From Dehalococcoidia bacterium (GTDB lineage: Bacteria > Chloroflexota > Dehalococcoidia > Lucifugimonadales > CBDFII01), in NCBI GenBank assembly GCA_965248115.1, contig CBDFII010000005.1, positions 154,551 through 218,550 of the forward strand: a stretch of 64,000 nucleotides of DNA. Reading direction: 5' to 3'. Under the pieces are notes generated by a model, which saw only the letters and a list, made by a program, of their open reading frames with translations, had not been told where the DNA came from and ran no database searches. Below are positions 876 through 53,639 of the stretch, one piece after another; position 1 is the stretch's first letter; every line of letters begins with the position of its first letter. The position numbers were made by a program, and so were the translations under genes.

Positions 876-876
876 A

Positions 877-1446: not shown

Positions 1447-1489
1447 GCGGCGGGCGTTCCCGACTAACTAGACCAACGGAAAAGAGAGC

Positions 1490-5983: not shown

Positions 5984-6090
5984 GGGGATTTGACCTCCTC
6001 TAGCTTAGCTAAAATCATACCCATTATACCCCCTGAGTCCTTTGCACACCTCTTCCTAAGCGAATCATGTATACTTTGCAGGGGAGTGAC

Positions 6091-6927
6091 ATGGCTACCT
6101 TCCTAGAACGATTAAACAGGGCGTGCCAGACGTATCGAAGTCTCCTTTGCGTGGGATTGGATCCCGATCCCTCCCTAATGCCAGTACAGGATGTGCTCCA
6201 GTTTAACCGCGCCATCATCGACGCCACCTCTGACCTGGTGTGCGCCTACAAGCCTAATCTGGCCTTCTACGAGGCCCAGGGCCTCGAGGGACTGAGTGCC
6301 CTGAAGCAAACGGTTGTGTACATCAAGCGGGTGGCCCCTGAGGTGCTGGTGATCGGCGATGGCAAGCGGGGCGACATCGACTCCAGCAGCCGCGCCTACG
6401 CTCGGGCCATGTTCCAGGTGTGGGGATTCGATGCCGTGACGGTGAATCCATATCTGGGCGGCGATTCTCTACAACCTTTCCTTGACTATACTGAGAAGGG
6501 AGTCTTTCTCCTCTGCCGTACCTCCAACCTCGGCGCCGTCGATCTTCAGGACCTCAAGGCTCCCGGTGGGGCAGGGGAGCTCCCGGTATACCAACACGTA
6601 GCCATGCGGGCCCAGGAGTGGAACACACATGGCAACGTAGGGCTGGTAGTGGGGGCCACCTATAGCGACGACCTCCGTCAGGTGCGTAAGCTCTGTCCCC
6701 AAATGCCCATCCTTGTGCCTGGCGTTGGCGCTCAGGGAGGCGATCTGGAGGCAGCGATACGTTATGGCACCGACGAAGAGGGCCGCCTGGCCATCATCAG
6801 CGCCTCACGCCAGATCACCTACGCTTCCAAAGGAGAGGACTTTCCCCAAGCGGCCCGCCGCGAAGCCACTAGGCTAAAAGAGGAGATCAACCGAATCCTG
6901 GAGGCAGAGGGGAAGGGATGGTCTTAG
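6091..6927 (+). CDS. pyrF: Orotidine 5'-phosphate decarboxylase (type 2)
   Basis: The motifs LCVGLDPD, AYKPNLAFYEA and GDGKRGDI are present. An RBS (GGGGAG) precedes the ATG at 6091; the track ORF begins at 6067. Confidence 0.9.
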   Translation: MATFLERLNRACQTYRSLLCVGLDPDPSLMPVQDVLQFNRAIIDATSDLVCAYKPNLAFYEAQGLEGLSALKQTVVYIKRVAPEVLVIGDGKRGDIDSSSRAYARAMFQVWGFDAVTVNPYLGGDSLQPFLDYTEKGVFLLCRTSNLGAVDLQDLKAPGGAGELPVYQHVAMRAQEWNTHGNVGLVVGATYSDDLRQVRKLCPQMPILVPGVGAQGGDLEAAIRYGTDEEGRLAIISASRQITYASKGEDFPQAARREATRLKEEINRILEAEGKGWS

Positions 6928-9063: not shown

Positions 9064-10245
9064 ATGAAAATCACCATGTCCATTCTAAAAGCCGACGTTG
9101 GCTCCATTGGGGGCCACACCAAGCCATCACAGCAGATGATGGATTCCGTCAAAGAGGATGTTCAGAAAGCCATAGACAAGGATCTAGTCCTGGATGGCTT
9201 CGTATCCCACACTGGTGACGACATCGCTATTCTTGTCTCTCACGAAAGAGGTGCCGATAACACGGACATCCATCAGTTTGCCTGGAACACCTTCCTCAAG
9301 GCCACGTCCATAGCCCAGCAGTATGGACTTTACGGTGCTGGCCAAGACCTGTTGGTGGACGCCCCGTCGGGCAACATACGTGGCGCTGGCCCAGCCGTAG
9401 CTGAGGTGGAATTCAACCACGACCCTGCCAAGACCAATAAGGTACGCCCCGCCGAGTCATTCTTGATGCTGGCGGCCGACAAGTGCGGACCCGGCGCCTA
9501 CAATCTGCCTATGTTCTTGGGGTTCGCTGATCCGATGTATTGTGCCGGCCTAATGCTCCCCAATATGATGAAGGGCTTCACCTTCCACATCATCGACATG
9601 GATAACACAGGGGGAGACAGCATAATCGAGCTCAACGCCCCCGAGGACTACTATCACATCTCTGCTTTGCTGCGGGATAACGAGCGCTTCGGCATCGATG
9701 GTATCTACTCCCGCACCCATGGCGAGCGGGCGGTAGCAGTGTCGGCCCAGCGACTACACAACATCGCGGGAACGTACACGGGCAAGGACGACCCCGTAGC
9801 CCTGGTGCGCAACCAGGGCATATTCCCCGCCCCTGAAGAGCTCTGCTCTCCTTACGCCAAGGCTCACTACGTCGGTGGCGATGCCAGAGGGTCCCACGTT
9901 ATGCCTCTGATGCCCGTCCCTCTCAATACACCGGTGACGGGAATGTACTGTCTACCTCTAGTCTCCTGCGTGGGATTCTCCCTGGATGCTCGAGGCCACT
10001 TCTCCAGCTCCTATATTGATTTCTTCGACAATCCCGCCTGGGACGTGGTACGTGAGAAGGCCCAGAACAAGGCCATCGAGATGCGCAGCCAAGGCTGGTC
10101 GGGGGCTGCTATGCTTCCTTACTCCGAGCTGGAGTACAGCGGCTTCCGCAACACCGTCACCAACCTGGTAGATCGTTTCGCCTTCCGCGATGGGCACAAT
10201 GGGAAGGAGCCCACCCCCGTGCCAGAAAAGACCGCCACCTCCTAG
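9064..10245 (+). CDS. fbp: Fructose-1,6-bisphosphate aldolase/phosphatase (class V FBPase)
   Basis: The N-terminus MKITMSILKADVGSIGGHTKP and the ~390-aa length are characteristic. A strong RBS (AAAGGAGG) is present. Confidence 0.9.
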   Translation: MKITMSILKADVGSIGGHTKPSQQMMDSVKEDVQKAIDKDLVLDGFVSHTGDDIAILVSHERGADNTDIHQFAWNTFLKATSIAQQYGLYGAGQDLLVDAPSGNIRGAGPAVAEVEFNHDPAKTNKVRPAESFLMLAADKCGPGAYNLPMFLGFADPMYCAGLMLPNMMKGFTFHIIDMDNTGGDSIIELNAPEDYYHISALLRDNERFGIDGIYSRTHGERAVAVSAQRLHNIAGTYTGKDDPVALVRNQGIFPAPEELCSPYAKAHYVGGDARGSHVMPLMPVPLNTPVTGMYCLPLVSCVGFSLDARGHFSSSYIDFFDNPAWDVVREKAQNKAIEMRSQGWSGAAMLPYSELEYSGFRNTVTNLVDRFAFRDGHNGKEPTPVPEKTATS

Positions 10246-10293
10246 GTGATTAGCTACTTCACAACGGTGCTCGACCAAGGGTACTATTGAAGG

Positions 10294-10920
10294 GTGGATA
10301 CCCCACCTCTTCCAAAGTTGCTCCTGGCTACCAGGAACTCTGGAAAGGTACGAGAGTACCGAGAGCTCCTTAAGGACATCCCCTTTCAAATAGCTTCTCT
10401 GGAAATGGAAGCCATCAAGGAAGATATCCCCGAAACGGGAGACTCCTTCTACGAAAATGCCTGCCTGAAAGCCCGTGGATTCGCCTCCCTAAGCCGCCTC
10501 CTAACCTTGGCCGACGACTCAGGACTTGAAGTGGACGCTCTGGGTGGAGAGCCTGGAGTTAAGTCGGCACGTTACGGCAGCGATCCCTCCTATACTGATG
10601 AGGATAGGTTGCGCTTGTTGCTCCACAACCTGGAGCACATACCCTGGGAGCAGAGGGGGGCACGTTTCCAGTGCGTCATTGCCATCGCCTGGCCCTCTGG
10701 AGAGGTGAAGACGGTAGCGGGAACCGTAGAAGGTGTTATACAATACGAACCAAAGGGCGCTTACGGCTTCGGGTACGACCCCGTCTTCTACCTTCCCGAA
10801 ATGGGGATGACCACGGCCCAGCTCCCACCCGAGGAGAAGAACAGGCTTAGTCACAGAGGCCAGGCAGCGAGAAAGGCCGTAGCTCTACTGAAAAGGCTAG
10901 CACAGGACGCCAATGCTTAA
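10294..10920 (+). CDS. rdgB: Non-canonical purine NTP pyrophosphatase (RdgB/HAM1 family)
   Basis: The motifs LLLATRNSGKVREY, DDSGLEVDALGGEPGV.SARY, GFGYDPVF and SHRG are present. Confidence 0.85.
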   Translation: MDTPPLPKLLLATRNSGKVREYRELLKDIPFQIASLEMEAIKEDIPETGDSFYENACLKARGFASLSRLLTLADDSGLEVDALGGEPGVKSARYGSDPSYTDEDRLRLLLHNLEHIPWEQRGARFQCVIAIAWPSGEVKTVAGTVEGVIQYEPKGAYGFGYDPVFYLPEMGMTTAQLPPEEKNRLSHRGQAARKAVALLKRLAQDANA

Positions 10921-11938
10921 AACTCAGATCAACGTAACAGACACCATGGGCCGGCCGCTACGGGACCTCCGCATCTCGGTCACCGATCGATGCAATTTCC
11001 GATGCCCCTACTGTATGCCCGCTGAGGTCTATGGAGCCAGGTACAAGTTCCTTCCCAAGCCTGAATTGCTCACCTTCGAGGAGATTATCCGCCTCACAAA
11101 GCTGCTAGTTGAGCTGGGCATCAACAAGGTAAGGCTGACTGGGGGCGAGCCCCTGGTAAGAAACAACCTCGAAGAGCTGGTTGCGATGCTCTCCCAAATT
11201 AAGGGAATCAAGGACCTCACTTTAACAACCAACGGCTATCTCCTGGCCCAAAAGGCTCAGGTTCTCAAGGATGCCGGGCTTCAGCGGATAACGGTAAGCC
11301 TGGACTCGCTGGACGAAGAGGTATTCAAGCAGATGAACGGCCGGGGCTACGGAACTCGAAGAGTATTGGAGGGGATTCGCAGGGCGGAAGAGATGGGCCT
11401 TAGCCCCATAAAGATAAATGCGGTAGTGCAGCGAGGAGTCAACGACCACACCATCGTAGATCTCGCCCGGCACTTCAAGGGTTCGGGACACATCGTTCGT
11501 TTCATCGAGTACATGGATGTGGGTAACCTAAATGACTGGAATCTGGATCAGGTGGTCAGCGCCGACGACATCGCGGCCCGCATCAATGCCGAGCTCCCCA
11601 TCGAGCCCATTGAGGCCAACTACAGGGGAGAGGTAGCCCTGCGCTATCGCTACAAGGACGGTGGCGGGGAGATCGGCATCATCGCCTCCGTCACCAAGCC
11701 ATTCTGTGGCGACTGTACTCGCATAAGGCTTTCCACCGACGGGAAGATATACACCTGCCTTTTCGCCAGCGTAGGGACTGACCTGCGAGGCCCTATGAGA
11801 TCGGAGGCCTCCGACGATGAGCTCAGGGACATAATAACGCGCACCTGGGTACGCCGAACCGACCGATACTCGGAGGAGCGAGCCTCCATGACAGGGCCCC
11901 AGCCAAGAAAGGTCGAGATGTACCAGATTGGCGGCTAG
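10913..11938 (+). CDS. moaA: GTP 3',8-cyclase (radical SAM, molybdenum cofactor biosynthesis)
   Basis: The motifs LRISVTDRCNFRCPYCMP and C-terminal FCGDCTRIRLSTDGKIYTCLF are present. The start overlaps the rdgB stop. Confidence 0.9.
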   Translation: MLKTQINVTDTMGRPLRDLRISVTDRCNFRCPYCMPAEVYGARYKFLPKPELLTFEEIIRLTKLLVELGINKVRLTGGEPLVRNNLEELVAMLSQIKGIKDLTLTTNGYLLAQKAQVLKDAGLQRITVSLDSLDEEVFKQMNGRGYGTRRVLEGIRRAEEMGLSPIKINAVVQRGVNDHTIVDLARHFKGSGHIVRFIEYMDVGNLNDWNLDQVVSADDIAARINAELPIEPIEANYRGEVALRYRYKDGGGEIGIIASVTKPFCGDCTRIRLSTDGKIYTCLFASVGTDLRGPMRSEASDDELRDIITRTWVRRTDRYSEERASMTGPQPRKVEMYQIGG

Positions 11939-12010
11939 AAAGAAGGTAAAGGCTCCGTAGCGGGCGTGGCTACGTCCGCTTTTATTTTTAGCCAGGAGCA
12001 CCTATTAGCT

Positions 12011-12931
12011 ATGATCAACATCTACACTGATGGATCCTGCAAGGGAAACCCAGGCCCCGGCGGCTGGGCAGCCATCATCGAAGAGGATGGCACCAAGCGC
12101 AGCCTGGCCGGTCGAGAGGACGCTACCACCAATAACCGCATGGAGATGCTCGCGACTATTAAGGGGCTGGAGGCGATACCCGACCAGTCTGAGGTAACGG
12201 TCATCAGCGATAGCCGGTACGTGGTTAACACTATGACTCGAAACTGGAAACGGAAGGCGAACCAGGACCTTTGGGCAAGGCTGGACTCAGTGGTTAAGAG
12301 ACGTCGTGTTCATTGGGAGTGGGTTCGAGGCCATTCCGGCCATCCCGGTAACGAGGAAGCCGATGCCCTAGCTAACAGGCAGATAGGGCCGCCACCCAAG
12401 AGCCAGAGGAGCCAGCCTAAACCAAGGGGAAACGACATCAGAGGCCAGACTACCGAAAGCCTCCACCACCTGGACACCCAGGGACGTGCCCAGATGGTGG
12501 ACGTAGGCGGCAAGCCCGATACGGTGCGAGAGGCGGTGGCCCGCGGCTTTGTATTCATGAGCGCAGGCACCTTAAGACTTATCGTTGAGGGCAACATCGA
12601 GAAGGGGGACGTGCTCACCGTGGCCAGGCTCGCCGGGATTATGGGGGCCAAGCAGACTCCCCACCTTATTCCCCTGTGCCACCCCATCCCCCTCAACCGC
12701 GTCACTGTGGAGCTGGAGCCCGATGATGAAAGAAGCGGCATCCGTATAACCGCCACTGCCACCACCGAAGCCAAGACGGGAGTGGAGATGGAGGCCCTCA
12801 CCGCCGTCACCGTGGCAGCCCTCACCATCTACGACATGTGCAAGTCCCACGACCGGGCCATGCGCATCGAGGCGGTACGCCTGGTGAGTAAGCGCGGTGG
12901 CAAGAGTGGCGACATCATCTTGGAGGAGTAG
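12011..12931 (+). CDS. RNase HI domain fused to MoaC (cyclic pyranopterin monophosphate synthase)
   Basis: The N-terminal sequence [21 protein letters not shown]...NNRMEM...ISDSRYV...[12 protein letters not shown] carries the RNase H DEDD residues. A Pro/Gln/Ser-rich linker follows. The C-terminal sequence [13 protein letters not shown]...[10 protein letters not shown]...[23 protein letters not shown] is MoaC. The whole is one continuous frame. Confidence 0.8.
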
Positions 12932-12933
12932 CT

Positions 12934-13680
12934 TTGGAAGTTGTGGCCGGTGTCCACAAGGTAGACGGGACTATCGGGAGTAACGTTTACATCCTGATGG
13001 ATGAGCGCTCCCTGGCCCTGGTGGACACGGGCCTCCAAGGCAACGCGGGCAAGATAGAAAGATACATAGAAGGCCTTGGCAGGAAGGTATCAGACCTTCG
13101 ATGGATCATCCTCACCCACGGCCACCCAGACCACACCGGCACTATCACGGCACTTCGCCGCCACAGCGACTTCCAAGTCCTGGTCCACCACAACGACGTT
13201 AAGTGGGATAAGGTCGGCAAGCCGAGAGTCCATTACGTAAGCCAACCCCTGGCGCTGGAATGGGAGGTGCCCCTCTTCCAGAAAATCCTCGCCGACGAAC
13301 TGGTGGACGAGGGCTACACTTTGCCCATCCTGGGCGGTCTTCAGGTGCTCCACACGCCAGGCCACACCGCAGGAAGCATAAGTCCCTATCTACCCAGTTT
13401 GAAGTTGCTGTTCACTGGCGACACCCTCCTCAGCGATGGCAGACTGTTTACAAGGCCATTCCCCTTCCCCGGCACCGATAGCAAGCTTTACCGGCGCTCG
13501 GTGGAGCGGCTAGCGACCCTCAACTTTGAGGTGGCCTGCGTAGGCCACGGCCGTCCTCTGGTAGGAGGGGCTTCAGAAAAGCTGCAAGACATGATTCGCA
13601 ACTATTTCTGGTCTGGCACCGGCTGGAACCTGGTGCGCCGTCTATCCTCCTCCCTGTTCGCTGGCCAGCGCGAGCGGTAA
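12934..13680 (+). CDS. MBL-fold metallo-hydrolase
   Basis: The motifs LTHGHPDHTG, HTPGHTAGS and CVGHG are present. Confidence 0.8.
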   Translation: MEVVAGVHKVDGTIGSNVYILMDERSLALVDTGLQGNAGKIERYIEGLGRKVSDLRWIILTHGHPDHTGTITALRRHSDFQVLVHHNDVKWDKVGKPRVHYVSQPLALEWEVPLFQKILADELVDEGYTLPILGGLQVLHTPGHTAGSISPYLPSLKLLFTGDTLLSDGRLFTRPFPFPGTDSKLYRRSVERLATLNFEVACVGHGRPLVGGASEKLQDMIRNYFWSGTGWNLVRRLSSSLFAGQRER

Positions 13681-13685
13681 GCTGA

Positions 13686-13714
13686 TTGACAGTCCGATGG
13701 CTTGAAATTATATT
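13686..13714 (+). promoter_or_regulatory. Sigma-70-like promoter upstream of the tRNA
   Basis: TTGACA (13686-13691), a 17-nt spacer and TATATT (13709-13714) lie about 48 nt upstream of the tRNA 5' end. Confidence 0.45.
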
Positions 13715-13761
13715 GACTGTAATGGAAGTGCGCCTGGCGACTGGCCGGTGCCTTCTTGGGT

Positions 13762-13836
13762 GCCAAGGTAGCTCAGCGGCAGAGCGGGCGCTTCATAAGC
13801 GCTAGGTCATAGGTTCGAATCCTATCCTTGGCACCA
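13762..13836 (+). tRNA. tRNA-Met (anticodon CAT), CCA encoded
   Basis: I folded the cloverleaf by hand. The acceptor is GCCAAGG/CCTTGGC, the D arm GCTC/GAGC, the anticodon arm GGCGC-TTCATAA-GCGCT, and the T arm ATAGG-TTCGAAT-CCTAT, followed by ACCA. The G1-C72 pair and the lack of three G-C pairs in the anticodon stem argue for an elongator type. An Ile2 (lysidine) identity cannot be excluded. Confidence 0.9.
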
Positions 13837-14018
13837 TCGTTCATAGGTGGATCACTCTGTATACTGTTAACACTATTAGCTTGACCGTTAACAAAAGTGT
13901 TAACAAGATAGACGTACCGCTGGTACAAGTCCGGTCTCCAGCGCCTTTTTCCGTTCACCATGTAGCTCAGGTATGCGGGTGTGATTCCTAGTTCTTTAGC
14001 GATCTTTCTGAGTGACAT
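13773..14018 (-). CDS. Small XRE/Cro-like HTH protein; the ORF reads into the tRNA 3' end
   Basis: The sequence MSLRKIAKELGITPAYLSYMVNGKRRW is HTH-like. It is possibly the C-terminal half of a fusion with ORF 13996..14190 (see findings). Confidence 0.4.
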   Translation of the reverse strand: MSLRKIAKELGITPAYLSYMVNGKRRWRPDLYQRYVYLVNTFVNGQANSVNSIQSDPPMNDGAKDRIRTYDLALMKRPLCR

Positions 14019-14190
14019 TCTGATCCCCTTTCTCTCGTTCCAACTTCTCCTTTATCGCTTCCTCTAGCCACTTTCCAACCGTCATTCCGCTGGCCTTAGC
14101 TTGCTTTTTAGCCATGTGTAGGGCGTTTGGCTCCATTCGTATGGACAGAGTTGGCTTGTGGCCTGTAGCTGGACGACCAGTACGTGCCAT
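13996..14190 (-). CDS. Ribbon-helix-helix (CopG/Arc-like) protein
   Basis: The sequence KPTLSIRMEPNALHMAKKQAKASGMTVGKWLEEAIKEKLE fits a strand-helix-helix layout. Confidence 0.45.
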   Translation of the reverse strand: MARTGRPATGHKPTLSIRMEPNALHMAKKQAKASGMTVGKWLEEAIKEKLEREKGDQNVTQKDR

Positions 14191-14262
14191 ATGGATATTC
14201 TACTAAATGTACGACATAAAGTCAAGTGTTCACTGACATTCGAGGTTATGGCTTTCTTCCAA

Positions 14263-14654
14263 TTAGATGATCCAAATCAGTACCAGACCAACTACGGCCA
14301 ATACTATGGCAGCAGTTCCCCATCCATTGGCGTGAACATCGTCACCCCACCATTTGGGTCTTTGGGCAACGGGAATCGCCGCCAGTAGTGGAGAAAGCCA
14401 CAAGAACCTATATAGTAAAGCCACGACGCCAATAACTGCATAAACGACAGCTAGTACAGCTGATGCAGGAAGGGAAATGCCATTGAAGACGATGAAAACG
14501 AACATGGCGGCTATAATGAAACTAAGGGAAGTGGCACCAACTGTTCTACCTAAGTGAACCTTCACCTCCATATCTGAAGCATTACATGGGAGCATAGTGA
14601 GAATCCATCTGAAGAACCGCCACTCCCGACAAGCAGAAGCCAAAATTATTAGGA
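14263..14654 (-). pseudogene. 3' part of a small membrane-protein gene interrupted by the IS element
   Basis: The track ORF 14263..14760 reads out of the IS left end. Only 14263..14654 is host sequence. Joined to 16025..16076, it gives a 144-aa protein with about four TM segments. Confidence 0.75.
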
Positions 14655-16024
14655 GTAGAGTCCCAGGAAGTGGTGTAATAAGAGGGAGAGGGTCTGGAGA
14701 AAGAGAGACCACCGCGTCATCCTTAGCGAGCAAAGAAGAAAGCTCGAGAAAGGAGGACAACAGTGGTCAAGGAGAGGATGGACCTGCTGGAGCTATTGCG
14801 CAAGAGGGGAGTCGACGGTGACGTGGACTTTCTACGCGAGGCACTGAGAGTGCTGGTCGAGGAGATCATGGAGGCTGATGTGTCATCGAGGACCGGTGCT
14901 GGGTATGGAGAACGCAACCCTGAGCGGGTGACCCAGCGCAACGGGTACCGGTCTCGAGCATGGGACACTCGCGTAGGGACCATGGAGTTGCAGATACCCA
15001 AGCTGAGGGAGGGGAGCTACTTTCCGATCCTGCTGGAGCCACGGCGTCGCAGCGAGCGAGCTCTGCTGGCGGTGATCCAGCAGGCGTATGTGGAGGGTGT
15101 ATCGACGAGGCGAGTGGATGATCTGGTCAAGGCTCTTGGGTGCGAGGGTATCTCAAAGAGCCAAGTGTCGCGTATCTGCCAGGAGCTGGACGGGGTGGTG
15201 GAGAGCTTCCTGGGTCGGCCGCTAGATGGGGGACCCTACCCCTATCTGTGGCTGGACGCACTAACCCAGAAGGTCAGAGAGGCCGGTAGGATAGTCAACG
15301 TCAGCGTGGTGGTGGCGACGGCGGTCAATAGCGAGGGCAAGCGTGAGATCGTTGGGATGGACGTGGGTACCAGTGAAGACGGTGCATTCTGGCTGGCCTT
15401 CCTGCGCTCACTGTCGGCCAGAGGCCTCGGCGGGGTGGAGCTGGTGGTATCGGACGCTCATCAGGGACTCCGAGGCGCCATCGCCGCAGTCTTCGGCGGA
15501 GCCAGCTGGCAACGGTGCCGCACCCACTTCATGACCAACCTGCTCACTCGGGTCCCCAGGCGCGCCCAGCCATGGGTAGCCACCATGGTGCGCACCATCT
15601 ACCAGCAACCCTCCCCCGATGAGGTACACGCCCAGTTCGACAGGGTGACCGATCAACTCCAGAACCGGTTCCCTCAGGTCGCCTCTCTACTGGACGAGGC
15701 TGGACCCGACGTCCTGGCCTTCTCCAGCTTCCCCGTCGCCCACTGGAAGAAGATCTGGTTCAACAACCCCCTGGAGCGTCTCAACAAGGAGATACGGCGC
15801 CGCACCGATGTGGTGGGCATCTTCCCTAACCGCCCAGCTGTCCGTCGCCTGGTCGGCGCCGTCCTAGCTGAGCAGCACGACGAGTGGGCCGTCGGCCGTC
15901 GATACATCACACAGGAGGTAACCACCTCCAACGAAGCTCTACCCAGAGCCGAACTCGCAGAGGCAGCGGCCTAGACGATATCAACAGGATGACGTACTCT
16001 TACACCACTCTATGGGACGTGACC
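14655..16024 (+). mobile_element. IS256-family insertion sequence, 1370 bp, flanked by the 9-bp direct repeat TTATTAGGA
   Basis: The imperfect terminal inverted repeats are GTAGAGTCCCAGGAAGTGGTGTAA (left) and TTACACCACTCTATGGGACGTGACC (right). The target duplication lies at 14646-14654 and 16025-16033. A single IS256-type transposase gene sits inside. Confidence 0.85.
14763..15974 (+). CDS. IS256-family (Mutator-type) transposase
   Basis: The motifs ...RNGYRSRAWDTRVGTMELQIPKLREGSYFP...YLWLDA...VVSDAHQGL..A....F....WQRC..HF..N......NPLERLNKEIRRR are typical of IS256 transposases. Confidence 0.9.
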   Translation: MVKERMDLLELLRKRGVDGDVDFLREALRVLVEEIMEADVSSRTGAGYGERNPERVTQRNGYRSRAWDTRVGTMELQIPKLREGSYFPILLEPRRRSERALLAVIQQAYVEGVSTRRVDDLVKALGCEGISKSQVSRICQELDGVVESFLGRPLDGGPYPYLWLDALTQKVREAGRIVNVSVVVATAVNSEGKREIVGMDVGTSEDGAFWLAFLRSLSARGLGGVELVVSDAHQGLRGAIAAVFGGASWQRCRTHFMTNLLTRVPRRAQPWVATMVRTIYQQPSPDEVHAQFDRVTDQLQNRFPQVASLLDEAGPDVLAFSSFPVAHWKKIWFNNPLERLNKEIRRRTDVVGIFPNRPAVRRLVGAVLAEQHDEWAVGRRYITQEVTTSNEALPRAELAEAAA

Positions 16025-29823: not shown

Positions 29824-30025
29824 TTTCTCCTCCATCAGTTCGCTATGTTTGTAGAGGGCAGGAAGATGAGGATGCTCTCTAACTCTTATGGGAGAGCTAA
29901 ACCATCTTAGCACAGGGTACTCACCTGTCCTACTGGATGTCTATCTCAAAGTATTTGACATCAAGGTCCAACTCAGTTATGTTCCCTACGCAAAGCAAGG
30001 GAACGCAGCTAGAATGAGGAGAGAA

Positions 30026-30613
30026 ATGCCCCCACAATCAGAGCGATGGCTGGAGATTTTCGAGCCTGTGGTAGCGTATCAGGACACCAGGGCCGTCCAG
30101 ATATCCCCATCGCCTAGGCCCACCAACCTGGAAGGCAAGCGGGTAGTCTTTATTGCCAACTTTAAGCCCCGATCGCTGCCCTTCATGGAGGTAGTGGCTA
30201 CAACGGCATCTCAGCAGATCCATCTGGGAGAGGCTGTCACTAAACAACCCACCTGGCCCTTCACCCACGCAGACCGCCTAAAGGAGATCGAGCCCCAGGT
30301 GGAGGTGCTGGCTAAAACGTGCGACGCAATGGTGACCGGGATAGGGGACTGAGGGGCCTGCACGCTGTGGAGTGTCCACGCAGCGACCAGCTTCGAGAGG
30401 CATGGCATCCCTTCGGTGATAATCGCCACCGACCTGTTCTTGGCTCACGCCCGCCGTCTGCTGGCCAGTCTTGGTTGCGCCCACACCCCCGTAGTGGTGA
30501 CTCCCAACCCCATCGTGTACTTAAATGCGAAGGAAGTTCAGCAACGTGCCGAGGCCCTTGTTCCTGAGATATCTCGGAGTATCACCACCCAGGGAAGACA
30601 GGTCGGAAGCTAG
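30026..30613 (+). CDS. Candidate selenoprotein (U-G-A-C motif); TGA at 30350-30352 read as Sec
   Basis: Track ORFs 29888..30352 and 30416..30613 are in the same frame with only this TGA between them. The translation across it is ...CDAMVTGIGD-U-GACTLWSVHAATSFERHGIPSVIIATD.... It aligns end to end with the paralogue at 49562..50107. An RBS (GAGGAG) precedes the ATG at 30026. Confidence 0.6.
30363..30385 (+). promoter_or_regulatory. SECIS-like hairpin downstream of the in-frame TGA
   Basis: The sequence CGC-T-GTGGA GTG TCCAC-G-CA-GCG forms a 5-bp apical stem plus a G.U pair plus 3 bp. The loop is GUG, and 19 nt separate the TGA from the loop. Confidence 0.35.
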
Positions 30614-30641: not shown

Positions 30642-31703
30642 ATGGTCAATAGAATCAAGATACAGGTGGACTCGGAAGAGGACGCCTCCGCCGATTTCTT
30701 TGACACCGCCTGTGATCGGGGCTGGACCGATGGTCTGCCAGTGATCCCGCCAACCCCCGAACGGGTGGAGGGCATGCTAGCCACAGTAGAGCGAGACCCC
30801 CAAGAGGTGGTCGCCATTCTGCCGCCTCGACAGGGTCCCGCCACTGTCGAAAGCCTGGCCGTTAATGCGGTGATGGCGGGTTGCCGACCCGAGTACTTCC
30901 CGGTGGTGGTGGCGGCAGTGGAGGCCATAGGTGACCCTCGGTTCCCTCGACGCACGCTATCTGGCCACACCCTTGAGACCCCATTCCTGCTCATCAATGG
31001 CCCCATCAGAAGAGAGATCAACATCAACTGTGAGACAGCATGTCTGGGACCCGGACGGCGGGCCAACGCTACCATCGGTCGAGCCCTTCAGCTTATCATG
31101 ATCAACGTAGGAGGAGGCATACCTGATGGGGTGATCAGCACCAATATGTCCTCGCCTCTCCATTACACCTTTTGCGCAGGGGAAAACGAGGAAGAAAGCC
31201 CCTGGGAACCCTTCCATATGGAGCATGGTTACAAGAAAGAGCAGAGCGTGGTCACCGCCTTTCGGGCCACCTCCTACATCGCCCTACTTGCCCCTTTGGA
31301 CTATTGGGACGAATCAGTAGAAGGCATCCTAAGCCATACCGCCGGTTCCATGGTCTCCCCTGATCAAACCGCATTGTATGGGGGAAACCTGTGCGCCTTG
31401 TTGCTGGTAACCCCCGAACGGGCCCAGTTCTTTGCCCAGGAGGGACTATCTAAAGCGGACGTCAAGGCGAGGCTTTGCGAGAAAGCATCGCTACCTCTCT
31501 CTGTTTTTCGCCCGGGAGTGAGGCAGACTTTGGAGGAACTGGGGCGGGTAAAGAGCGATAAAGTTACGATGTTTGACAGACCCGATGAGATTCATATCGT
31601 TGTCATGGGCGGGCCAGGGATCTACTCCATCTTCATCCCTGGCTTCTCTCACGAGGTAGTCCCCACTGCCCCAGTAGGCAAGCTAATCTCCACAGGGATG
31701 TAG
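30642..31703 (+). CDS. Uncharacterised conserved protein (GWTDGLPVxPPT / AVNAVMAGC / RANATxGRA motifs), partner of the TGA-containing gene
   Basis: An RBS (AGGAGGG) precedes the ATG at 30642, 28 nt after the upstream stop. The 353-aa protein is a clear paralogue of 50139..51182. I recognise no family. Confidence 0.7.
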   Translation: MVNRIKIQVDSEEDASADFFDTACDRGWTDGLPVIPPTPERVEGMLATVERDPQEVVAILPPRQGPATVESLAVNAVMAGCRPEYFPVVVAAVEAIGDPRFPRRTLSGHTLETPFLLINGPIRREININCETACLGPGRRANATIGRALQLIMINVGGGIPDGVISTNMSSPLHYTFCAGENEEESPWEPFHMEHGYKKEQSVVTAFRATSYIALLAPLDYWDESVEGILSHTAGSMVSPDQTALYGGNLCALLLVTPERAQFFAQEGLSKADVKARLCEKASLPLSVFRPGVRQTLEELGRVKSDKVTMFDRPDEIHIVVMGGPGIYSIFIPGFSHEVVPTAPVGKLISTGM

Positions 31704-31833
31704 TAGTATAGTAAAATACTTGGCAGATTAGACAGCACCGACAACATACTCAATACGTTCGGTGTCATGCTCGGCCGGTTCCGGGCGATCTGTATTTCAT
31801 GTTCTTAGACTATATGACGTAGAAAGGAGCTTT

Positions 31834-32142
31834 ATGTATCTCGTTAGACGAGTGTGGAAAGTGAAGCCAGGGACTGCACGCAAGGCAGCGACAATAATAG
31901 CCCAGATAGGGAAGGTGTACGAGGAAGCGGGGCAGCGCTCCCCAACAAGGGTCTATACGAGCGGTGGTAGTGTTCCAGGGCCAGCCAACACCGTCTATAT
32001 GGACTGGACTGAGGAGGAGTTGCGATCCCCTTATCGCTCTGGAAACAAATCACCCAATGAGACTTCGGCACTTGCGGCGCAGCTTAGCGAATTCCAGGAG
32101 GAGAATTACATCGAGTTCTACGAGCTGTTTACTCCTGCCTGA
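31834..32142 (+). CDS. Hypothetical 102-aa protein
   Basis: An RBS (AAAGGAG) precedes the ATG at 31834. The sequence MYLVRRVWKVKPGTARKAATIIAQIGKVYEE...ENYIEFYELF looks compatible with a small alpha+beta fold. I recognise no family. Confidence 0.5.
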   Translation: MYLVRRVWKVKPGTARKAATIIAQIGKVYEEAGQRSPTRVYTSGGSVPGPANTVYMDWTEEELRSPYRSGNKSPNETSALAAQLSEFQEENYIEFYELFTPA

Positions 32143-48357: not shown

Positions 48358-49377
48358 TTACAGGTTAAACTGGGGGTCGACGTAATCCTGATCTTTGATG
48401 TAGACCTGTAGTCGACCCCGCTGACAATCAGCTACTATAATTCGGCTCTCAGCCTCGTCAAAGGCCACGGCGGCGGGATAGTAGAACCGCCATTCCGGTT
48501 CCAGACTCTTGACCCTACGCCGCGCCTTAATCATATCCGGATTGGCTTCCAGCCGTAGCCGAGCCCACTTGGAGATCTCCTGGGCATCTCCAATGAGTGA
48601 GGTGATAACATCTCCATCGGGCCCAAAGATCTGGATACGATTGTTAGCCCAATCGCACACGTATATGTCACCTTCTCCGTCAACGGCCACGTCGGAAGGA
48701 TGGTTTAGCTCTCCTGCTCCTGTCCCAAAGGTGCCAAATATAGCCAAAAAAGTGCCGTCGGGGGAGAACTTCTGCACCCGATGGTTTTTCCAATCGGCAA
48801 CGTAAATGTCCCCTTGATTGTCGATGGTGATGCCCCAAGGGAAGTTGAACTGGCCCTCACCGGTGCCCCCTTCCCCAAATTTGGCTAAAAAGGTGCCGTC
48901 CTTGGTGAACTTCTGGACGCGATTGTTGGCGCTATCGACGACGTAGAGGTTATCCTCCCTGTCAAAGACCATACCTGAAGGGCGATTAAATTCCCCGTCC
49001 CTTTGCCCCGGCATACCCCATGTGTCCAGGAAATTGCCATCTTTATCGAATATGGAGATACTATGTGGCCACTCGTCGGAGACGTAGACGTTGCCTTCCC
49101 TGTCCAGGGCCACAGAGGTGGGCCACGTAGTTTGCCCATCTCTCTCGCCGTACTGGCCAAACTCACATATGAATTCTTCCTCTCCAGGTCCTCCGATGGT
49201 GATCTTGCTCACTCGAGTAAAAAAGGCGGTTTCGCTGCCCCGGCTAACCACATACACCACTCCACCTTGACCTATTGCCAAAGCCGTTGGCACGTGAAAT
49301 CCGTTGCCCGTGCCCCTGACTGTTCCCACCACATGGCTAAAGTTATACACTCGCCCTGATGCTATGGTCGTGAGCAT
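48358..49377 (-). CDS. NHL-repeat six-bladed beta-propeller protein
   Basis: It has repeated units of the form G.F..P.G.A.D..GN.YV.D..N.R.Q.F...G.F. Confidence 0.8.
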   Translation of the reverse strand: MLTTIASGRVYNFSHVVGTVRGTGNGFHVPTALAIGQGGVVYVVSRGSETAFFTRVSKITIGGPGEEEFICEFGQYGERDGQTTWPTSVALDREGNVYVSDEWPHSISIFDKDGNFLDTWGMPGQRDGEFNRPSGMVFDREDNLYVVDSANNRVQKFTKDGTFLAKFGEGGTGEGQFNFPWGITIDNQGDIYVADWKNHRVQKFSPDGTFLAIFGTFGTGAGELNHPSDVAVDGEGDIYVCDWANNRIQIFGPDGDVITSLIGDAQEISKWARLRLEANPDMIKARRRVKSLEPEWRFYYPAAVAFDEAESRIIVADCQRGRLQVYIKDQDYVDPQFNL

Positions 49378-49561: not shown

Positions 49562-50107
49562 TTACCCCTTGCCCATCAGCAGTTGCAGCACCTGGGGCAG
49601 TGCCTGACGGGCCCGATCCCACAACTGCTCTTCGGTTAGGGCGGTGATGGGGTGGGGCAGCACAACATAGGGGTAATCGGGTATGCCCTGGATCTGCGCC
49701 GTCATGTTGGCAGTTGGAATAAAGGGCTCGGTGCAGATGACCGCTGCGGGTTTACCCTGCTTCTCGATGGTGATGCCGTCGTGCACACTGCACGAACTGC
49801 AGGACCCTCAATCCCCTGTGGCAGTCACCACCATGTCACACTGGCTTAGCAGCTCTTGAAGAAGATCATCGGGGCAGGGACGGCTGGCGTTGCCCTTGTC
49901 GCGGGCAACGACCCCCTGTATCTGGTAGTGCTCCGCTATAAGGACACTTACATAGTCCAACAGCTTGTCGGCATTTCGTTTGCCATTGGAAAGTAGGCCC
50001 ACAGTCTTGCCGTTAAGGGATTCGGGCCTTGGCGCCATGTCTCCATGGGCTGGCATGGGCGGTACGGTGGGATTCAAAACGGTAAACTTGTCAGTTTGAA
50101 CTACCAT
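49562..50107 (-). CDS. Candidate selenoprotein (U-G-S-C motif); TGA at 49808-49810 read as Sec
   Basis: Track ORFs 49808..50107 and 49562..49786 are in the same frame with only this TGA between them. The translation across it is ...CDMVVTATGD-U-GSCSSCSVHDGITIEKQGKPAAVICTE.... A strong RBS (TAAGGAGG) precedes the ATG at 50107. Confidence 0.65.
49779..49795 (-). promoter_or_regulatory. SECIS-like hairpin downstream of the in-frame TGA
   Basis: On the minus strand, TCGTGCA GTG TGCACGA forms a 7-bp stem with a GUG loop. Again 19 nt separate the TGA from the loop. Confidence 0.35.
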
Positions 50108-50138: not shown

Positions 50139-51182
50139 TCAAATTTGACTTGTATCGATCTCCATAATAACGGAGCGTGACCCAATGCCGCCACCCCATA
50201 AGGGGATAACAGAGGCGAAGGCTCCAGCCTCTCCACCGGCGGTTATGAGGGTGATAGATTCGGGACTGAGGCAAATGGGAACCTTCTCCTTCTCCTTGGC
50301 AGGATCCGCTAAAGGCTCGGACCTGCTTGCCCGGGCCAGATCTCCGGCGGTACGTTGGGCGTCCTCAAAGAGGAACTGCCTCACTTGGGCCTTGGTCCAC
50401 CCAGCCTCCTTGATAGGGATCGTTAGCTCAGGAGAGATCACGACGATGATCTCGCCCTGGCCTGGGCCAGCAGCCCGGATAATATCGCTTATGCTGACCA
50501 GAATCCCCTCGGGGGTGTTGCCAACAACATTGGTTACCTGCCAGGGTGCAAGGGAAGCAAAGACAGTAACAGCACTTCGCTCTCGTGAGATTCCTCGTTC
50601 CACATGCAGGGGCTCCCAGGGGCTAGACTCCTCGTATTCGGCGAAGCAGAAGGAATATTTGCCAGGATGGCCCAGGGTGGACTTATCCAGTACCCCGGGG
50701 ATGGTACCGCACACGTTCATCAAGACCAAGCGCATGGCCCGGCCTACTGTGGCATTGGCCCGCCAGCCGGAGCCGAGGGCGTTAACGCCGCTGTTGAATC
50801 CCAGTTGATACCGTACAGGGCCGTTGACTACTACAAGTACAGTGGAGCCCTGGGTGCTAAGGGCACAGCTGTGGAGGTTAAAAGGGTCTTGGCAGATTGC
50901 ACGGACGGCAGCGGCTACCACTGGCATATATTCGGGCAGGCATCCGGCCATAACAGCGTTGATGGCCACCTTTTCAGCAGTGACCACACGTCCGCGGCCC
51001 GGCACCACGCCCAGAACATCGGAAGGAGCTAAGCCAGCCCTTTCCAGCGCCGCCACGACCTTAGCCTCAGTAGGTGGAACCACGGGCAACCCATCAGTCC
51101 AGCCCTGACTATAATAGAGCTCTATAGCTTCTTCTTGATCGGCAACCTGGATACGCTCGGAAATAACAGGCGACGTGCTCAT
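50139..51182 (-). CDS. Uncharacterised conserved protein, paralogue of 30642..31703, partner of the TGA-containing gene
   Basis: An RBS (GGAGGG) precedes the ATG at 51182. It shares the motifs GWTDGLPVVPPT, AINAVMAGCLPEYMPVVAAAV, GWRANATVGRA and EESSPWEPLH. It ends 31 nt before the downstream gene. Confidence 0.7.
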   Translation of the reverse strand: MSTSPVISERIQVADQEEAIELYYSQGWTDGLPVVPPTEAKVVAALERAGLAPSDVLGVVPGRGRVVTAEKVAINAVMAGCLPEYMPVVAAAVRAICQDPFNLHSCALSTQGSTVLVVVNGPVRYQLGFNSGVNALGSGWRANATVGRAMRLVLMNVCGTIPGVLDKSTLGHPGKYSFCFAEYEESSPWEPLHVERGISRERSAVTVFASLAPWQVTNVVGNTPEGILVSISDIIRAAGPGQGEIIVVISPELTIPIKEAGWTKAQVRQFLFEDAQRTAGDLARASRSEPLADPAKEKEKVPICLSPESITLITAGGEAGAFASVIPLWGGGIGSRSVIMEIDTSQI

Positions 51183-52350: not shown

Positions 52351-52379
52351 TTGGATTGTTGTCTAAAGGGGAGGTAAGG

Positions 52380-53639
52380 ATGCTTAAGATAGGCCATTAT
52401 GTTGAACGCCCCGGGTTGAAGCCAAAGGATGCTCCTGTAACCATCCCTGTAGCCGAAGAGCTTGAGAGCGTCCCAGGAATCCCCCAAAACCCTGCGGACG
52501 TCGACTGGTACAGCCGGGAGTATCCCGAAGAGACTCAGCAGGTGGAATACACCGCCGACCGGGAATGGGCCAACACGGTGCTTACACCTGAGGCCAAGGA
52601 GTTCAAGGAATTACACGAAAAGGTAATGGAACCTATCTACAAGCGCATCAGGGTCTCGGGGGATATCGAGCCCACAGCCCAGCCCACCGGCGAGGACGTG
52701 ACGGAGAAGATCAAGGCCAAGGCCCAAGAGTTGGGCTACCGTGAGGTGGGCATCGTCAAGTACGACCACCGTTATACATATAAGAGCGTGAAGCACTTCG
52801 TAAAGTACGAGCACGCCATCTGCCTGATGATGGAGCAAGATTACGAGCAGACCCAATCGGCTCCTAGCATGGATGCCGAGCACGGCCACTTCGGCACCTA
52901 CGAGATGCAAGGAATCGCTGGGCAGCGTCTCGCCGACTACGTCCGCTCCTTGGGCTACCATGCCCAAATACACGGCCCCAGCAACCACAACGCCGTAACC
53001 ATCCCCATGTTTGTTGAGGCAGGGCTGGGCCAATTGGGGGCTAACGGTCAGCTTCTCTCACCCCACTTCGGCTCCCGTGGCAGGCTCCAGCTCATTACCA
53101 CCGACGCCAAGGTAACCTACGACAAGCCGGTGGACTACGGGATCCACCGCTTTTGCCAGGTCTGCCAGGTGTGTGTCAATCGCTGTCCTGGGCGGGCCCT
53201 TCAGCGGGAGAAGGTGTGGTGGCGAGGCGTAGAGAAGAACAAGCTGACATACAAGCGCTGTGCCCCCGTGATGTTCCGCTATGAGGGGTGTGCCGTGTGC
53301 ATGAGGGTGTGCCCCATTCAGAAGTACGGAATGAAGGCCGTGATGGAGCACTACGTGGACACTGGGGAGGTGCTGGGCAAGGGCACCCACGAGCTGGAGG
53401 GCTACGAGATGCGGGGCAAGGGATATTTCGGCCCCGGCCAGCTTCCCACCTTTGACAACCAGTTCTTCCAGATCCCCCATGGCCGCACCGAGGACATGCT
53501 CTTTGAGGATTTCAAAGCTGAGCTCATCGACGGCGAGCTTCCCTCGGGCTCAGATGGGATCCGCATACTGGAGGAGTTCAAGGCCAATGTTAAGCACGCC
53601 TTGGACGAAGCCGCCCGGGCCACCAACCCTATGGACTAG
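52380..53639 (+). CDS. Reductive dehalogenase / epoxyqueuosine reductase (RdhA/QueG)-superfamily-like Fe-S protein, no signal peptide
   Basis: The core EAGLGQLGANGQLLSPHFGSRGRLQLITTD is followed by CQVCQVCVNRCP (C-x2-C-x2-C-x3-CP) and C-x10-CAVCMRVCP. An RBS (GGGGAGG) precedes the ATG at 52380. Confidence 0.65.
   Translation: MLKIGHYVERPGLKPKDAPVTIPVAEELESVPGIPQNPADVDWYSREYPEETQQVEYTADREWANTVLTPEAKEFKELHEKVMEPIYKRIRVSGDIEPTAQPTGEDVTEKIKAKAQELGYREVGIVKYDHRYTYKSVKHFVKYEHAICLMMEQDYEQTQSAPSMDAEHGHFGTYEMQGIAGQRLADYVRSLGYHAQIHGPSNHNAVTIPMFVEAGLGQLGANGQLLSPHFGSRGRLQLITTDAKVTYDKPVDYGIHRFCQVCQVCVNRCPGRALQREKVWWRGVEKNKLTYKRCAPVMFRYEGCAVCMRVCPIQKYGMKAVMEHYVDTGEVLGKGTHELEGYEMRGKGYFGPGQLPTFDNQFFQIPHGRTEDMLFEDFKAELIDGELPSGSDGIRILEEFKANVKHALDEAARATNPMD

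Follow-up and report, generated by a model that had tools for sequence, protein, structure and literature searches.

The window analyzed here (a 64,000-nucleotide stretch of DNA from a Dehalococcoidia bacterium) contains two copies of a two-gene module, each consisting of a UGSC-family selenoprotein gene and a gene for an uncharacterized protein of ~350 amino acids (referred to here as the large protein). Given that the two genes are adjacent or fused almost everywhere, we consider that their products probably constitute one selenium-dependent enzyme; that they form a complex is inferred. The signals for selenocysteine (Sec) decoding, the near-obligate pairing of the two genes, their fusions, and a remote homology of UGSC to the selenoproteins GrdB and PrdB were all demonstrated.

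Table 1. Positions of the two modules and associated features within the window
Feature	Positions	Strand	Basis or remark
UGSC-family selenoprotein gene, subtype B	30026..30613	+	Pfam PF24696, E 2.8e-35
In-frame TGA read as Sec (predicted), motif GD-U-GAC	30350..30352	+	Conserved UGSC-family sequence past the TGA
SECIS-like hairpin, core GUGGA-GUG-UCCAC	30363..30383	+	Begins 13 nt past the U of UGA
Large partner gene, 353 aa, subtype B	30642..31703	+	ATG start; RBS AGGAGG upstream
Gene for an NHL-repeat six-bladed beta-propeller, located downstream of the 50-kb UGSC gene	48358..49377	-	Pfam NHL, E 4.6e-44
UGSC-family selenoprotein gene, subtype A	49562..50107	-	Pfam PF24696, E 2e-58
SECIS-like hairpin UCGUGCA-GUG-UGCACGA	49777..49797	-	Single-sequence fold and family covariation
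In-frame TGA read as Sec (predicted), motif GD-U-GSC	49808..49810	-	50-kb translation and homologues
Large partner gene, 347 aa, subtype A	50139..51182	-	ATG at 51182; RBS GGAGG

An earlier note on this DNA had described the two large open reading frames (ORFs) as paralogues, and their alignment (35% identity over ~336 residues; E value, 3e-58) confirmed this. All four sequence blocks that it quoted as shared were found in the large proteins, and the 30-kb protein retains the Asp of GWTDGLP, MAGC, R.NAT.GRA, E.E, and the His. Its description of the gene arrangement was also accurate: each gene has its own ribosome-binding site (RBS), the UGSC and large genes are separated by 28 nt (30-kb module) or 31 nt (50-kb module), and the order is small-large at 30 kb and large-small at 50 kb. 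The 30-kb UGSC gene starts at ATG 30026 after AGGAG (ATG 30014 is an alternative start) and stops at TAG, and the 50-kb UGSC gene has the RBS AAGGAGG and stops at TAA.

On the basis of profile matches, both small genes are members of the UGSC (seleno)protein family (PF24696, NF041046). The full-length UGSC product matched PF24696 from end to end, with scores (50-kb copy, 197.7 bits; 30-kb copy, 122.4 bits) far above the 25-bit cutoff, and both copies fulfill the U-G-S-C criterion with a TGA-encoded U (GSC and GAC, respectively). Regarding NF041046, the 50-kb copy (160.2 bits) exceeded the 125-bit cutoff, and the 30-kb copy (93.7 bits) did not; thus, the latter is a divergent member with a UGAC motif. 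The UGSC family has been predicted since about 2005, without a known function (PMC2398784, PMC1976440), and was still uncharacterized in a 2026 review (PMC13188914). One reported carrier is Hyphomonas neptunium (PMC1976440). The suggestion of a possible new selenoenzyme system therefore stands for the partner and the pairing only, because the small gene belongs to an already-named family.

The TGA codon of the UGSC genes is, as judged from comparative sequence evidence, a real Sec codon, as the earlier note had supposed. It occupies the U position of U-G-[SAG]-C in 76 of 78 UGSC homologues (the other two encode Cys), and the reading frame and sequence are conserved across it in 76 homologues from many phyla. 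Furthermore, a SECIS hairpin occupies columns 14 to 34 past the UGA in the family, with the loop nucleotides G23 and U24 invariant, compensatory changes in three core pairs, and a covariation of 0.136 versus 0.054 for shuffles (0/500); it is present in both UGSC copies of the window. Reassignment of TGA in this organism was ruled out because TGA serves as an ordinary stop for 12 of the window's 41 long ORFs. No tRNA-Sec was found within the window, where an Rfam scan detected only a tRNA. Gene callers split UGSC genes at the TGA (e.g., into ORFs 49808..50107 and 49562..49786). The ratio of Sec to Cys forms was 76:2 among our homologues and is 255:21 in GOS (PMC2398784), an excess that fits, by inference, selenium-requiring chemistry rather than plain thiol-disulfide exchange.

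The pairing of the two genes was assessed in both directions. Of the 78 large genes flanked by 700 nt or more on each side, 69 were adjoined by a same-strand UGSC gene. UGSC genes were sampled independently as metagenome loci with a DNA pattern of UGA plus SECIS (120/120 were UGSC genes), and a large gene adjoined 56 of the 59 whose flanks both reached at least 500 nt. The linkage was thus 88 to 95% in both directions, while 8 of the 78 large genes had no UGSC gene within 10 kb. Fused genes were found in both orders, namely, UGSC-large (P0266, P0274, P0279, P0308, and P0321) and large-UGSC cut at the Sec codon (P0250 and P0265), and in P0253 and P0258, a large domain is fused to a UGSC fragment from past the Sec residue. 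The natural UGSC-large fusion P0274 was predicted by AF2 as one compact model (pTM, 0.85). In the fusions P0262 and P0287, both redox residues of the UGSC domain are lost and MAGC is kept, indicating that the two redox sites are not strictly interdependent. The adjacency counts and the fusions substantiate the functional coupling that had been inferred from the two copies alone.

The opposite gene orders had been interpreted as a rearrangement between the copies, and this interpretation did not hold. Gene order tracked subtype across 172 pairs, which rules out a recent inversion. In subtype A, the large gene precedes a UGSC gene with the motif U-G-S-C-S-S-C, and in subtype B, the large gene follows a UGSC gene with Trp at U+6. 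The two orders thus mark two old subtypes, each with a fixed order, and the window holds one of each. Two to three modules per locus were present at seven loci. The host lineages are mostly aerobic or environmental (Chloroflexota/SAR202, Methylomirabilota, Binatia, Burkholderiales, and Acidobacteriota).

The large proteins, which the earlier note could not place, lie outside any characterized family according to the reference sets searched (Pfam-A 2025, NCBIfam 20.0, and PDB), and they are labeled only "hypothetical protein" in the sources. Neither of the two window proteins had a Pfam or NCBIfam match at an E value of ≤0.01, 56 aligned members of the family had no consistent match even at ≤10, and a PDB profile search yielded only noise (best, HisF; E value, 0.078; 50 residues). 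The AF2 model of the 50-kb large protein (pLDDT, 92.8; pTM, 0.92) had no close fold in a Foldseek search of PDB (TMq, ≤0.28; root mean square deviation [rmsd], 14 to 18 Å), and the large subunit may accordingly be described, at the level of this model, as a novel fold, i.e., one without a close solved counterpart. The best match was the Leishmania class I fumarate hydratase (E value, 6e-4; probability, 0.8; TMq, 0.26; rmsd, 17 Å), followed by weaker matches to 5hy4 and 6dhj. Fumarate hydratase and the Toblerone-fold cyclic amide hydrolases, which act on small carboxylates or amides, exhibit a local 3Di likeness to the large protein and no sequence similarity. Moreover, class I fumarate hydratase has three Cys ligands for its [4Fe-4S] cluster, whereas the large protein has one invariant Cys. 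Given matches this weak (TMq, ≤0.28), we rejected homology to either group. At 50% identity, the family falls into about 7,800 clusters; it is absent from Pfam and NCBIfam and therefore merits its own family definition. For annotation, the motifs GWTDGLP and NAVMAGC in a ~350-aa "hypothetical" gene indicate that a selenoprotein gene, split by callers at its TGA, lies next to it.

Conserved polar residues of the large protein (50-kb numbering) are D30, N75, C81, R141, N143, R148, N156, E182, E184, and H193, of which D30, C81, R148, and E182 were invariant or nearly so in 152 family members. The earlier note had asked whether the Cys of AVNAVMAGC (C81) is universally conserved. It was nearly so but not in all members, being present in 147 of the 152 collected and, among the best library representatives, in 146 of 155 domains; C179 was present in 137 of 152, leaving C81 as the only invariant Cys. 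Five large genes without C81 have UGSC partners that retain Sec, and orphan large genes without UGSC retain C81. With no simple pattern of co-loss, C81 was rejected as an obligate redox partner of Sec.

The earlier note had offered, as inference only, an analogy with selenoprotein B of the glycine and proline reductases. This was supported by the matches of UGSC sequences to the selenoprotein B models (TIGR01917, TIGR01918, and TIGR04483): 13 of 24 UGSC sequences matched TIGR01917 (GrdB) across the Sec region (best E value, 6e-6), with further matches to GrdF (8), TIGR01918 (7), GrdH (6), and PrdB (6), and no other family recurred in more than 3 of the 24. These matches were below the threshold; the best selenoprotein B score of a window UGSC was 19 bits versus a 602-bit cutoff, covering only positions 325 to 396 of 431. 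On this weak but consistent evidence, UGSC appears to be a remote relative of the Sec region of GrdB/PrdB, not a member of that family, and a reductase function remains inferred.

Among the genes near the modules, thioredoxin reductase (TrxR)-like genes may supply electrons. P0387 is a fusion of a large protein and a TrxR-like protein and carries CAVC, L064 and the Candidimonas nitroreducens operon (L065) each contain a Pyr_redox_2 gene, and a TrxR-like ORF was present in six metagenome loci, directly beside UGSC where the coordinates resolve its position (e.g., L091, L125, and L126). Recurrent catabolic neighbors were family III CoA-transferase, SDR, LLM oxidoreductase, amidase, and NHL propeller. 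TrxR-like and CoA-transferase neighbors were present at only about 5% of loci. NHL-propeller homologues recurred at 17 of 83 loci, in many cases as the next gene after UGSC, and the propeller could be a third component of the subtype-A modules. C. nitroreducens SC-089 has a natural Cys form of UGSC, in an operon ordered large-UGSC-CoA-transferase-TrxR-like.

We favor, at slightly better than an even chance, the interpretation that the module encodes a two-subunit Sec-dependent oxidoreductase or reductase of unknown substrate. The ~350-aa protein would be the substrate-binding or catalytic subunit, on which the UGSC protein would dock to supply its Sec-x-x-Cys pair (the distance between Sec and C81 is undetermined). 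While bound to the large subunit, the substrate or an adduct of it would be attacked by the selenolate, and the neighboring Cys would resolve the intermediate to a selenenylsulfide, which could be re-reduced with NAD(P)H via the thioredoxin system or a dedicated TrxR-like flavoprotein. The enzyme would operate on the same principle as "protein B" of the glycine, betaine, and D-proline reductases, although its large subunit is unrelated to theirs. A small compound bearing a carboxylate is the probable substrate; the substrate class, like the physical complex, the reductase chemistry, and the electron route, is inferred. Enzyme-like features of the modules are the invariant or nearly invariant D30, C81, R148, and E182, the two to three modules at single loci, and the catabolic character of the neighbors. 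To our knowledge, no biochemical data exist for UGSC or the large family. Several observations count against a reductase: no relation of the large protein to GrdE, GrdG, GrdI, PrdA, or any known enzyme could be detected, five large genes lack C81, P0262 and P0287 have lost their redox residues, TrxR-like genes are rare (~5%), and 8 of 78 large genes are orphans.

UGSC could instead be a mere redox recycler. In this case, Cys81 of the large protein would serve as the nucleophile, as in Msr, ArsC, or Prx enzymes, and UGSC would only re-reduce its oxidized form (sulfenic acid or a mixed disulfide), in the role of thioredoxin. The conservation of C81 (147/152), the TrxR-like fusions and neighbors, the UxxC motif, which is classic for thiol/selenol-disulfide exchange, and the grouping of UGSC with thiol oxidoreductases (PMC2398784) are all consistent with such a role. 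However, a plain disulfide shuttle rarely requires Sec, yet Sec forms outnumber Cys forms by 76 to 2, and the five large genes without C81 keep a Sec-containing partner. The modeled UGSC fold is also flavodoxin-like rather than thioredoxin-like, and in the related GrdB/PrdB, Sec acts on the substrate, while the presence of several diversified modules per genome looks catabolic, not protective. We thus regard the recycler as unlikely, although it deserves consideration.

It seems still less probable that the pair performs no redox chemistry, with the large protein acting as a hydrolase, lyase, isomerase, or metal/cofactor handler and UGSC having a structural or regulatory role in which its Sec/Cys binds metal or senses redox state. 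Sec at one exact position with a costly SECIS in 76 of 78 homologues, the homology of UGSC to protein B reductases around their catalytic Sec, and the TrxR-like gene fused or in the same operon all count against this, even though P0262 and P0287 kept the large-domain motifs after losing both redox residues, eight large genes have no nearby UGSC, and E182, E184, H193, and D30 could bind metal. The weak fold matches that point to hydro-lyases and hydrolases (class I fumarate hydratase, cyclic amide hydrolase, and MmgE/PrpD) carry little weight because of their low TM scores (≤0.28) and high rmsd (>14 Å). Finally, callers do split genes at TGA, and some fusion proteins are cut exactly at the Sec position, as would be expected if the small genes were defective, or else ordinary short genes with TGA as their stop, and their linkage incidental. 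This has practically no chance of being correct, being contradicted by the frame and sequence conserved across the TGA in 76 homologues of many phyla, the Cys at the TGA codon in two homologues, the covarying hairpin after it, the end-to-end PF24696 match, and the linkage of 88 to 95% both ways.

Returning to the Sec-dependent two-subunit enzyme, we advance a broader proposal only tentatively, as its chances are well short of even: that large protein and UGSC represent a widespread, unrecognized class of selenium-dependent reductive-cleavage enzymes, a cousin of protein B with a catalytic subunit of new fold, in mostly aerobic bacteria of soils, groundwater, and the sea (SAR202 and other Chloroflexota, Methylomirabilota, Binatia, and Burkholderiales), and that its many paralogues act on different abundant small molecules (e.g., osmolytes and refractory organic acids). 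If true, this would account for the abundance of UGSC among the selenoproteins of environmental metagenomes. For about twenty years, UGSC has been listed among the most abundant of the selenoproteins predicted from ocean and freshwater metagenomes, yet no function has been assigned to it (PMC2398784; PMC13188914). The near-obligate partner, the kinship with GrdB/PrdB, and the occasional TrxR-like gene turn this unknown selenoprotein into a testable two-subunit enzyme, for which the Cys-form operon of C. nitroreducens SC-089 and the natural single-chain fusions offer tractable material.

In the literature, UGSC is a stand-alone protein of unknown function, whereas here it has a near-obligate partner gene. 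Zhang and Gladyshev placed it among thiol oxidoreductases and proposed a thioredoxin-like fold (PMC2398784). In contrast, UGSC (~180 aa) modeled here as a flavodoxin-like fold, with two subtypes of fixed gene order: the UGSC domain in the AF2 model of P0274 matched flavodoxin, TIR, lumazine synthase, and azoreductase, and no thioredoxin fold was among its top 50 Foldseek matches. The 2008 GOS paper reported a "UGSC/Unknown_1" fusion (PMC2398784). "Unknown_1" is probably the large family described here, although this is unproven.

A further close comparison is with the Grd/Prd reductases. GrdE, GrdG, GrdI, and PrdA belong to one family (PF09338), in which GrdE, GrdG, and PrdA form a pyruvoyl group; no similarity to these proteins was detected in 56 large-family members by Pfam/NCBIfam, even at an E value of ≤10. 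UGSC does not reach half the length of GrdB, and GrdA, GrdC, and GrdD, which belong to the Grd/Prd systems, were not noticed near UGSC (recurrent neighbor clusters only). The hosts also differ, being amino-acid-fermenting anaerobes for Grd/Prd and mostly aerobic or environmental lineages for the UGSC modules. Grd operons carry trxB and trxA, and a TrxR-like gene is sometimes adjacent to or fused with UGSC modules. In both systems, Sec forms dominate Cys forms, and the U-G-S-C/U-G-A-C motif of UGSC falls inside the region aligned to GrdB and PrdB. As for GrdB, GrdF, GrdH, and PrdB, a UxxC selenoprotein subunit is encoded alongside a larger subunit; the partner is substrate specific in Grd/Prd, and the large protein holds the corresponding position in the UGSC module.

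The two large proteins of the window are paralogues (35% identity over ~336 residues; BLASTP E value, 3e-58). Both of their genes have an ATG start after a Shine-Dalgarno-like sequence (AGGAGG ahead of position 30642 and GGAGG ahead of position 51182), and they are separated from a small TGA-containing gene by 31 nt at 50 kb, where the large gene comes first, and by 28 nt at 30 kb, where the small gene does. The earlier note had described two paralogous large genes, each near such a small gene and with its own ribosome-binding site, and this description was accurate. The 126-aa ORF immediately 3' of the 30-kb large gene had no Pfam match and no counterpart in other loci and may not be a gene. 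The tandem ~427-aa paralogues, which the earlier note labelled RdhA/QueG-like, gave only sub-threshold Fer4_16 and Fer4_7 matches (E ~1e-4, below gathering), had no Pfam assignment for their N-terminal ~260 residues, and matched nothing except each other among 83 clustered loci.

Features of the window and of selected comparison loci
Feature	Coordinates	Strand	Remarks
UGSC gene, 30-kb copy	30026..30613	+	single in-frame TGA 30350..30352; motif GD-U-GAC; stop TAG
Halves from ORF calling, 30-kb UGSC gene	29888..30352; 30416..30613	+	split at TGA
Large gene, 30-kb copy	30642..31703	+
126-aa ORF	31762..32142	+
NHL-repeat beta-propeller gene	48358..49377	-
UGSC gene, 50-kb copy	49562..50107	-	single in-frame TGA 49808..49810; motif GD-U-GSC; stop TAA
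Halves from ORF calling, 50-kb UGSC gene	49808..50107; 49562..49786	-	split at TGA
Large gene, 50-kb copy	50139..51182	-
Tandem ~427-aa paralogues	52356..53639; 53841..55127	+
L065 operon	9998..14036		Candidimonas nitroreducens SC-089
L064 locus	10130..15038		Actinomycetota MAG
L017 large gene	5707..6732		lacks C81
L019 large gene	2940..3953		lacks C81
L027 large gene	5627..6661		lacks C81
L011 large genes	1..2152		three in tandem on a single short contig

The small subunit belongs to an already known family. Once Cys had been substituted for Sec, both small proteins gave full-length matches to Pfam PF24696 ("UGSC family"; E values, 2e-58 and 2.8e-35); against NCBIfam NF041046 ("UGSC family (seleno)protein"; cutoff, 125 bits), the 50-kb copy scored 160 bits, and the 30-kb copy, a divergent member, scored 93.7 bits. 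UGSC, a family predicted in metagenomes of the Sargasso Sea and GOS, with 255 Sec versus 21 Cys forms in GOS, is one of the most abundant environmental selenoproteins (PMC2398784). A 2026 review still gives its function as unknown (PMC13188914).

Four results support decoding of the TGA as Sec and bear out the read-through assumed in the earlier note. Among 78 UGSC homologues located beside large genes, 76 contained exactly one TGA, at the U of [GA][DE]-U-G-[SAG]-C, and 2 had Cys at that position. In-frame protein conservation persisted past the TGA. A SECIS-like hairpin 3' of the UGA (columns 14 to 34; loop G23 and U24 invariant), present in both window copies, exhibited compensatory changes in three core pairs across 60 sequences; its covariation (0.136 versus 0.054 when shuffled) was reached by 0 of 500 shuffles and collapsed once the partner columns were slid. 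Finally, TGA is the ordinary stop of 12 of the 41 long ORFs in the window. Mechanical ORF calling cuts each selenoprotein gene in half at this codon, and the same artefact yields truncated "fusion" proteins ending or beginning at the Sec position in public protein sets; database counts for the UGSC family are distorted because callers split the genes in this way.

The large subunit, which the earlier note could not place, belongs to no curated family. Pfam and NCBIfam scans of 56 members up to an E value of 10 gave no consistent match, and a PDB sequence search returned only noise. Each window paralogue recovered at least 7,990 clusters (90% identity), all unnamed or "hypothetical protein" and none with a Pfam domain, and among 1.84 billion representatives, a profile search detected 7,789 proteins at E values of ≤1e-3 (2,559 at ≤1e-30). 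Hosts include Dehalococcoidia, SAR202, other Chloroflexota, Methylomirabilota/Rokubacteria, Binatia, Acidobacteriota, Burkholderiales, Alphaproteobacteria, Actinomycetota, Poribacteria, and Entotheonella; Candidimonas nitroreducens SC-089 is among the cultured carriers. The AF2 model, built from a 56-sequence alignment, was confident (pLDDT, 92.8; pTM, 0.92), and its best Foldseek PDB matches (class I fumarate hydratase, Toblerone-fold cyclic amide hydrolases, and RidA, IspF, and SelD-like domains) were all weak (TMq, ≤0.28; rmsd, >11 Å). Judging from this model, we treat the predicted fold as lacking a close solved relative.

Over 152 members, D30, A79, G80, G147, R148, and E182 (numbering of the 50-kb copy) were invariant, followed by N156 (148), C81 and N143 (147 each), R141 (142), C179 (137), E184 (130), and H193 (115). 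The Cys of AVNAVMAGC (C81), for which the earlier note raised universal conservation, is thus nearly but not strictly universal: Ala or Gly replaces it in five large genes. Three of these (L017, L019, and L027), each in the second of two modules at its locus, adjoin a UGSC gene confirmed to retain its Sec codon; the other two (L130 and L144) were recovered via the UGA and SECIS DNA pattern. Large-family genes also occur in tandem (L011), as do large-large proteins of ~710 aa (including P0241 to P0247), some of whose second halves lack the MAGC motif; these arrangements hint at a homo- or heterodimeric large subunit.

Whichever family is taken as the starting point, the other is almost always its neighbor, which agrees with the functional coupling claimed earlier. 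We fetched 80 genome loci via the large protein and searched six-frame translations, with TGA read through, for UGSC. A same-strand UGSC gene lay within 800 nt of 69 of the 78 (88%) full-length large genes flanked by ≥700 nt on each side (median gap, ~50 to 75 nt); eight large genes had no UGSC within 10 kb and retained every conserved residue. In the reverse direction, a DNA pattern built solely from the UGA and SECIS region retrieved 120 metagenome loci, all 120 of which were true UGSC genes. A same-strand large gene was adjacent at 56 of the 59 loci (95%) flanked by ≥500 nt on each side and at 38 of the 39 flanked by ≥1,000 nt.

Natural fusions with UGSC ahead of the large protein in one chain (528 to 563 aa) also occur, and one of them, P0274, was modeled by AF2 as a single compact object (pLDDT, 84.4; pTM, 0.85). 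Large-UGSC chains are terminated by gene callers precisely at the Sec position, and other chains start just past it. A "UGSC/Unknown_1 fusion" was reported in 2008 (PMC2398784); Unknown_1 is probably the large family. In two UGSC-large fusions, P0262 and P0287, neither UGSC redox residue is left (GWSGVY and EIGGSL replace GDCGSC), and the large domain retains all its conserved motifs; they may be non-redox derivatives.

The opposite gene orders in the window were real, but their reading as a rearrangement between the copies was not upheld. Among 172 pairs, Cys, Gly, or Ser occupied Sec+6 in 128 of the 130 large-first modules (typical motif, U-G-S-C-S-S-C), and Trp occupied it in 37 of the 42 UGSC-first modules. 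The orders therefore mark two old subtypes, one of each in the window, and recent rearrangement was rejected because order tracks this residue. UGSC-large fusions carry the Trp form, consistent with the rule, and several loci contain two or three modules.

Clues to mechanism came from remote homology and neighboring genes. Of 24 diverse UGSC sequences, 13 matched TIGR01917 (GrdB, selenoprotein B of glycine reductase; best E value, 6e-6), with fewer matches to GrdF (8), TIGR01918 (7), GrdH (6), and PrdB (6) and 3 to the next most frequent family. Scores were far below the GrdB and PrdB cutoffs, and UGSC is a remote relative of these families rather than a member; its relation to the selenoprotein B Sec region is weak but specific. 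The earlier analogy to selenoprotein B held in this respect for the small subunit but not for the large one, which had no detectable link to the partner proteins GrdE, GrdI, and PrdA. The UGSC domain was modeled as a flavodoxin-like alpha/beta fold, not a thioredoxin fold.

A large protein fused with a low-Mr thioredoxin-reductase-like domain (P0387) carries CAVC. The L065 operon encodes, in this order, the large protein, Cys-form UGSC, a family III CoA-transferase, a Pyr_redox_2 flavoprotein, and a periplasmic binding protein; homologues of its CoA-transferase and TrxR-like genes lie downstream of Cys-form UGSC in L064, from a different phylum. These are the sole Cys-form genes among the 78 homologues. 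A TrxR-like ORF was found in six metagenome loci, directly adjoining UGSC where coordinates resolve (e.g., L091, L125, and L126). An NHL-repeat beta-propeller gene was present in 17 of 83 loci, often immediately 3' of UGSC. The remaining neighbors (SDR, LLM oxidoreductase, amidase, CoA-transferase III, enoyl-CoA hydratase, and thiolase) are catabolic, as is typical for these lineages. Sec dominance among bacterial selenoproteins is typical of selenium-requiring chemistry, as in Grd and Prd, and the 76:2 ratio of Sec to Cys forms would fit such chemistry in UGSC.

On balance, we lean toward the module encoding a Sec-dependent reductase of two subunits. The signals for Sec decoding, the pairing, the fusions, the remote homology of the small subunit, and occasional TrxR linkage are observed; formation of a complex, the reductase chemistry, and the class of substrate are inferred. 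Counted against this reading were the large protein's lack of a detectable link to GrdE, GrdI, or PrdA and the rarity of TrxR-like and CoA-transferase neighbors (~5% of loci). The five C81-less large genes with Sec partners were also counted against it, and the same residue is central to an unlikely but not negligible reading, in which UGSC is the dedicated re-reductant of a Cys81-based enzyme. Some fusions, lacking both UGSC redox residues, weigh against the reductase as well; that the enzyme is non-redox and UGSC a structural, metal-binding, or sensing subunit nevertheless seems improbable. Broken genes or chance linkage, contradicted by both the Sec-decoding evidence and the two-way linkage, can hardly be entertained.

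In the literature naming UGSC with selenoproteins, we found neither the near-obligate pairing nor the two subtypes described, and nothing on the relation of UGSC to GrdB/PrdB or on the TrxR link; the sole related remark is the 2008 fusion note (PMC2398784). The module may, tentatively, represent a new class of reductive-cleavage enzymes that is widespread among aerobic environmental bacteria. The function is not established, and the long-open question of what UGSC does is now directly testable with tractable material: L065 is suited to experiments because the organism is cultured and its Cys form needs no Sec machinery.

If the module is a two-subunit reductase, the substrate site would lie in the large protein, and the conserved arginines and CoA-transferase neighbors suggest a carboxylate substrate. 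UGSC would deliver the Sec/Cys pair, left as a selenenylsulfide at the end of the cycle and re-reduced by the thioredoxin system or a dedicated TrxR-like flavoprotein. The proposed cycle is that of protein B in glycine, betaine, and proline reductases, with the difference that the large subunit of the module is unrelated.
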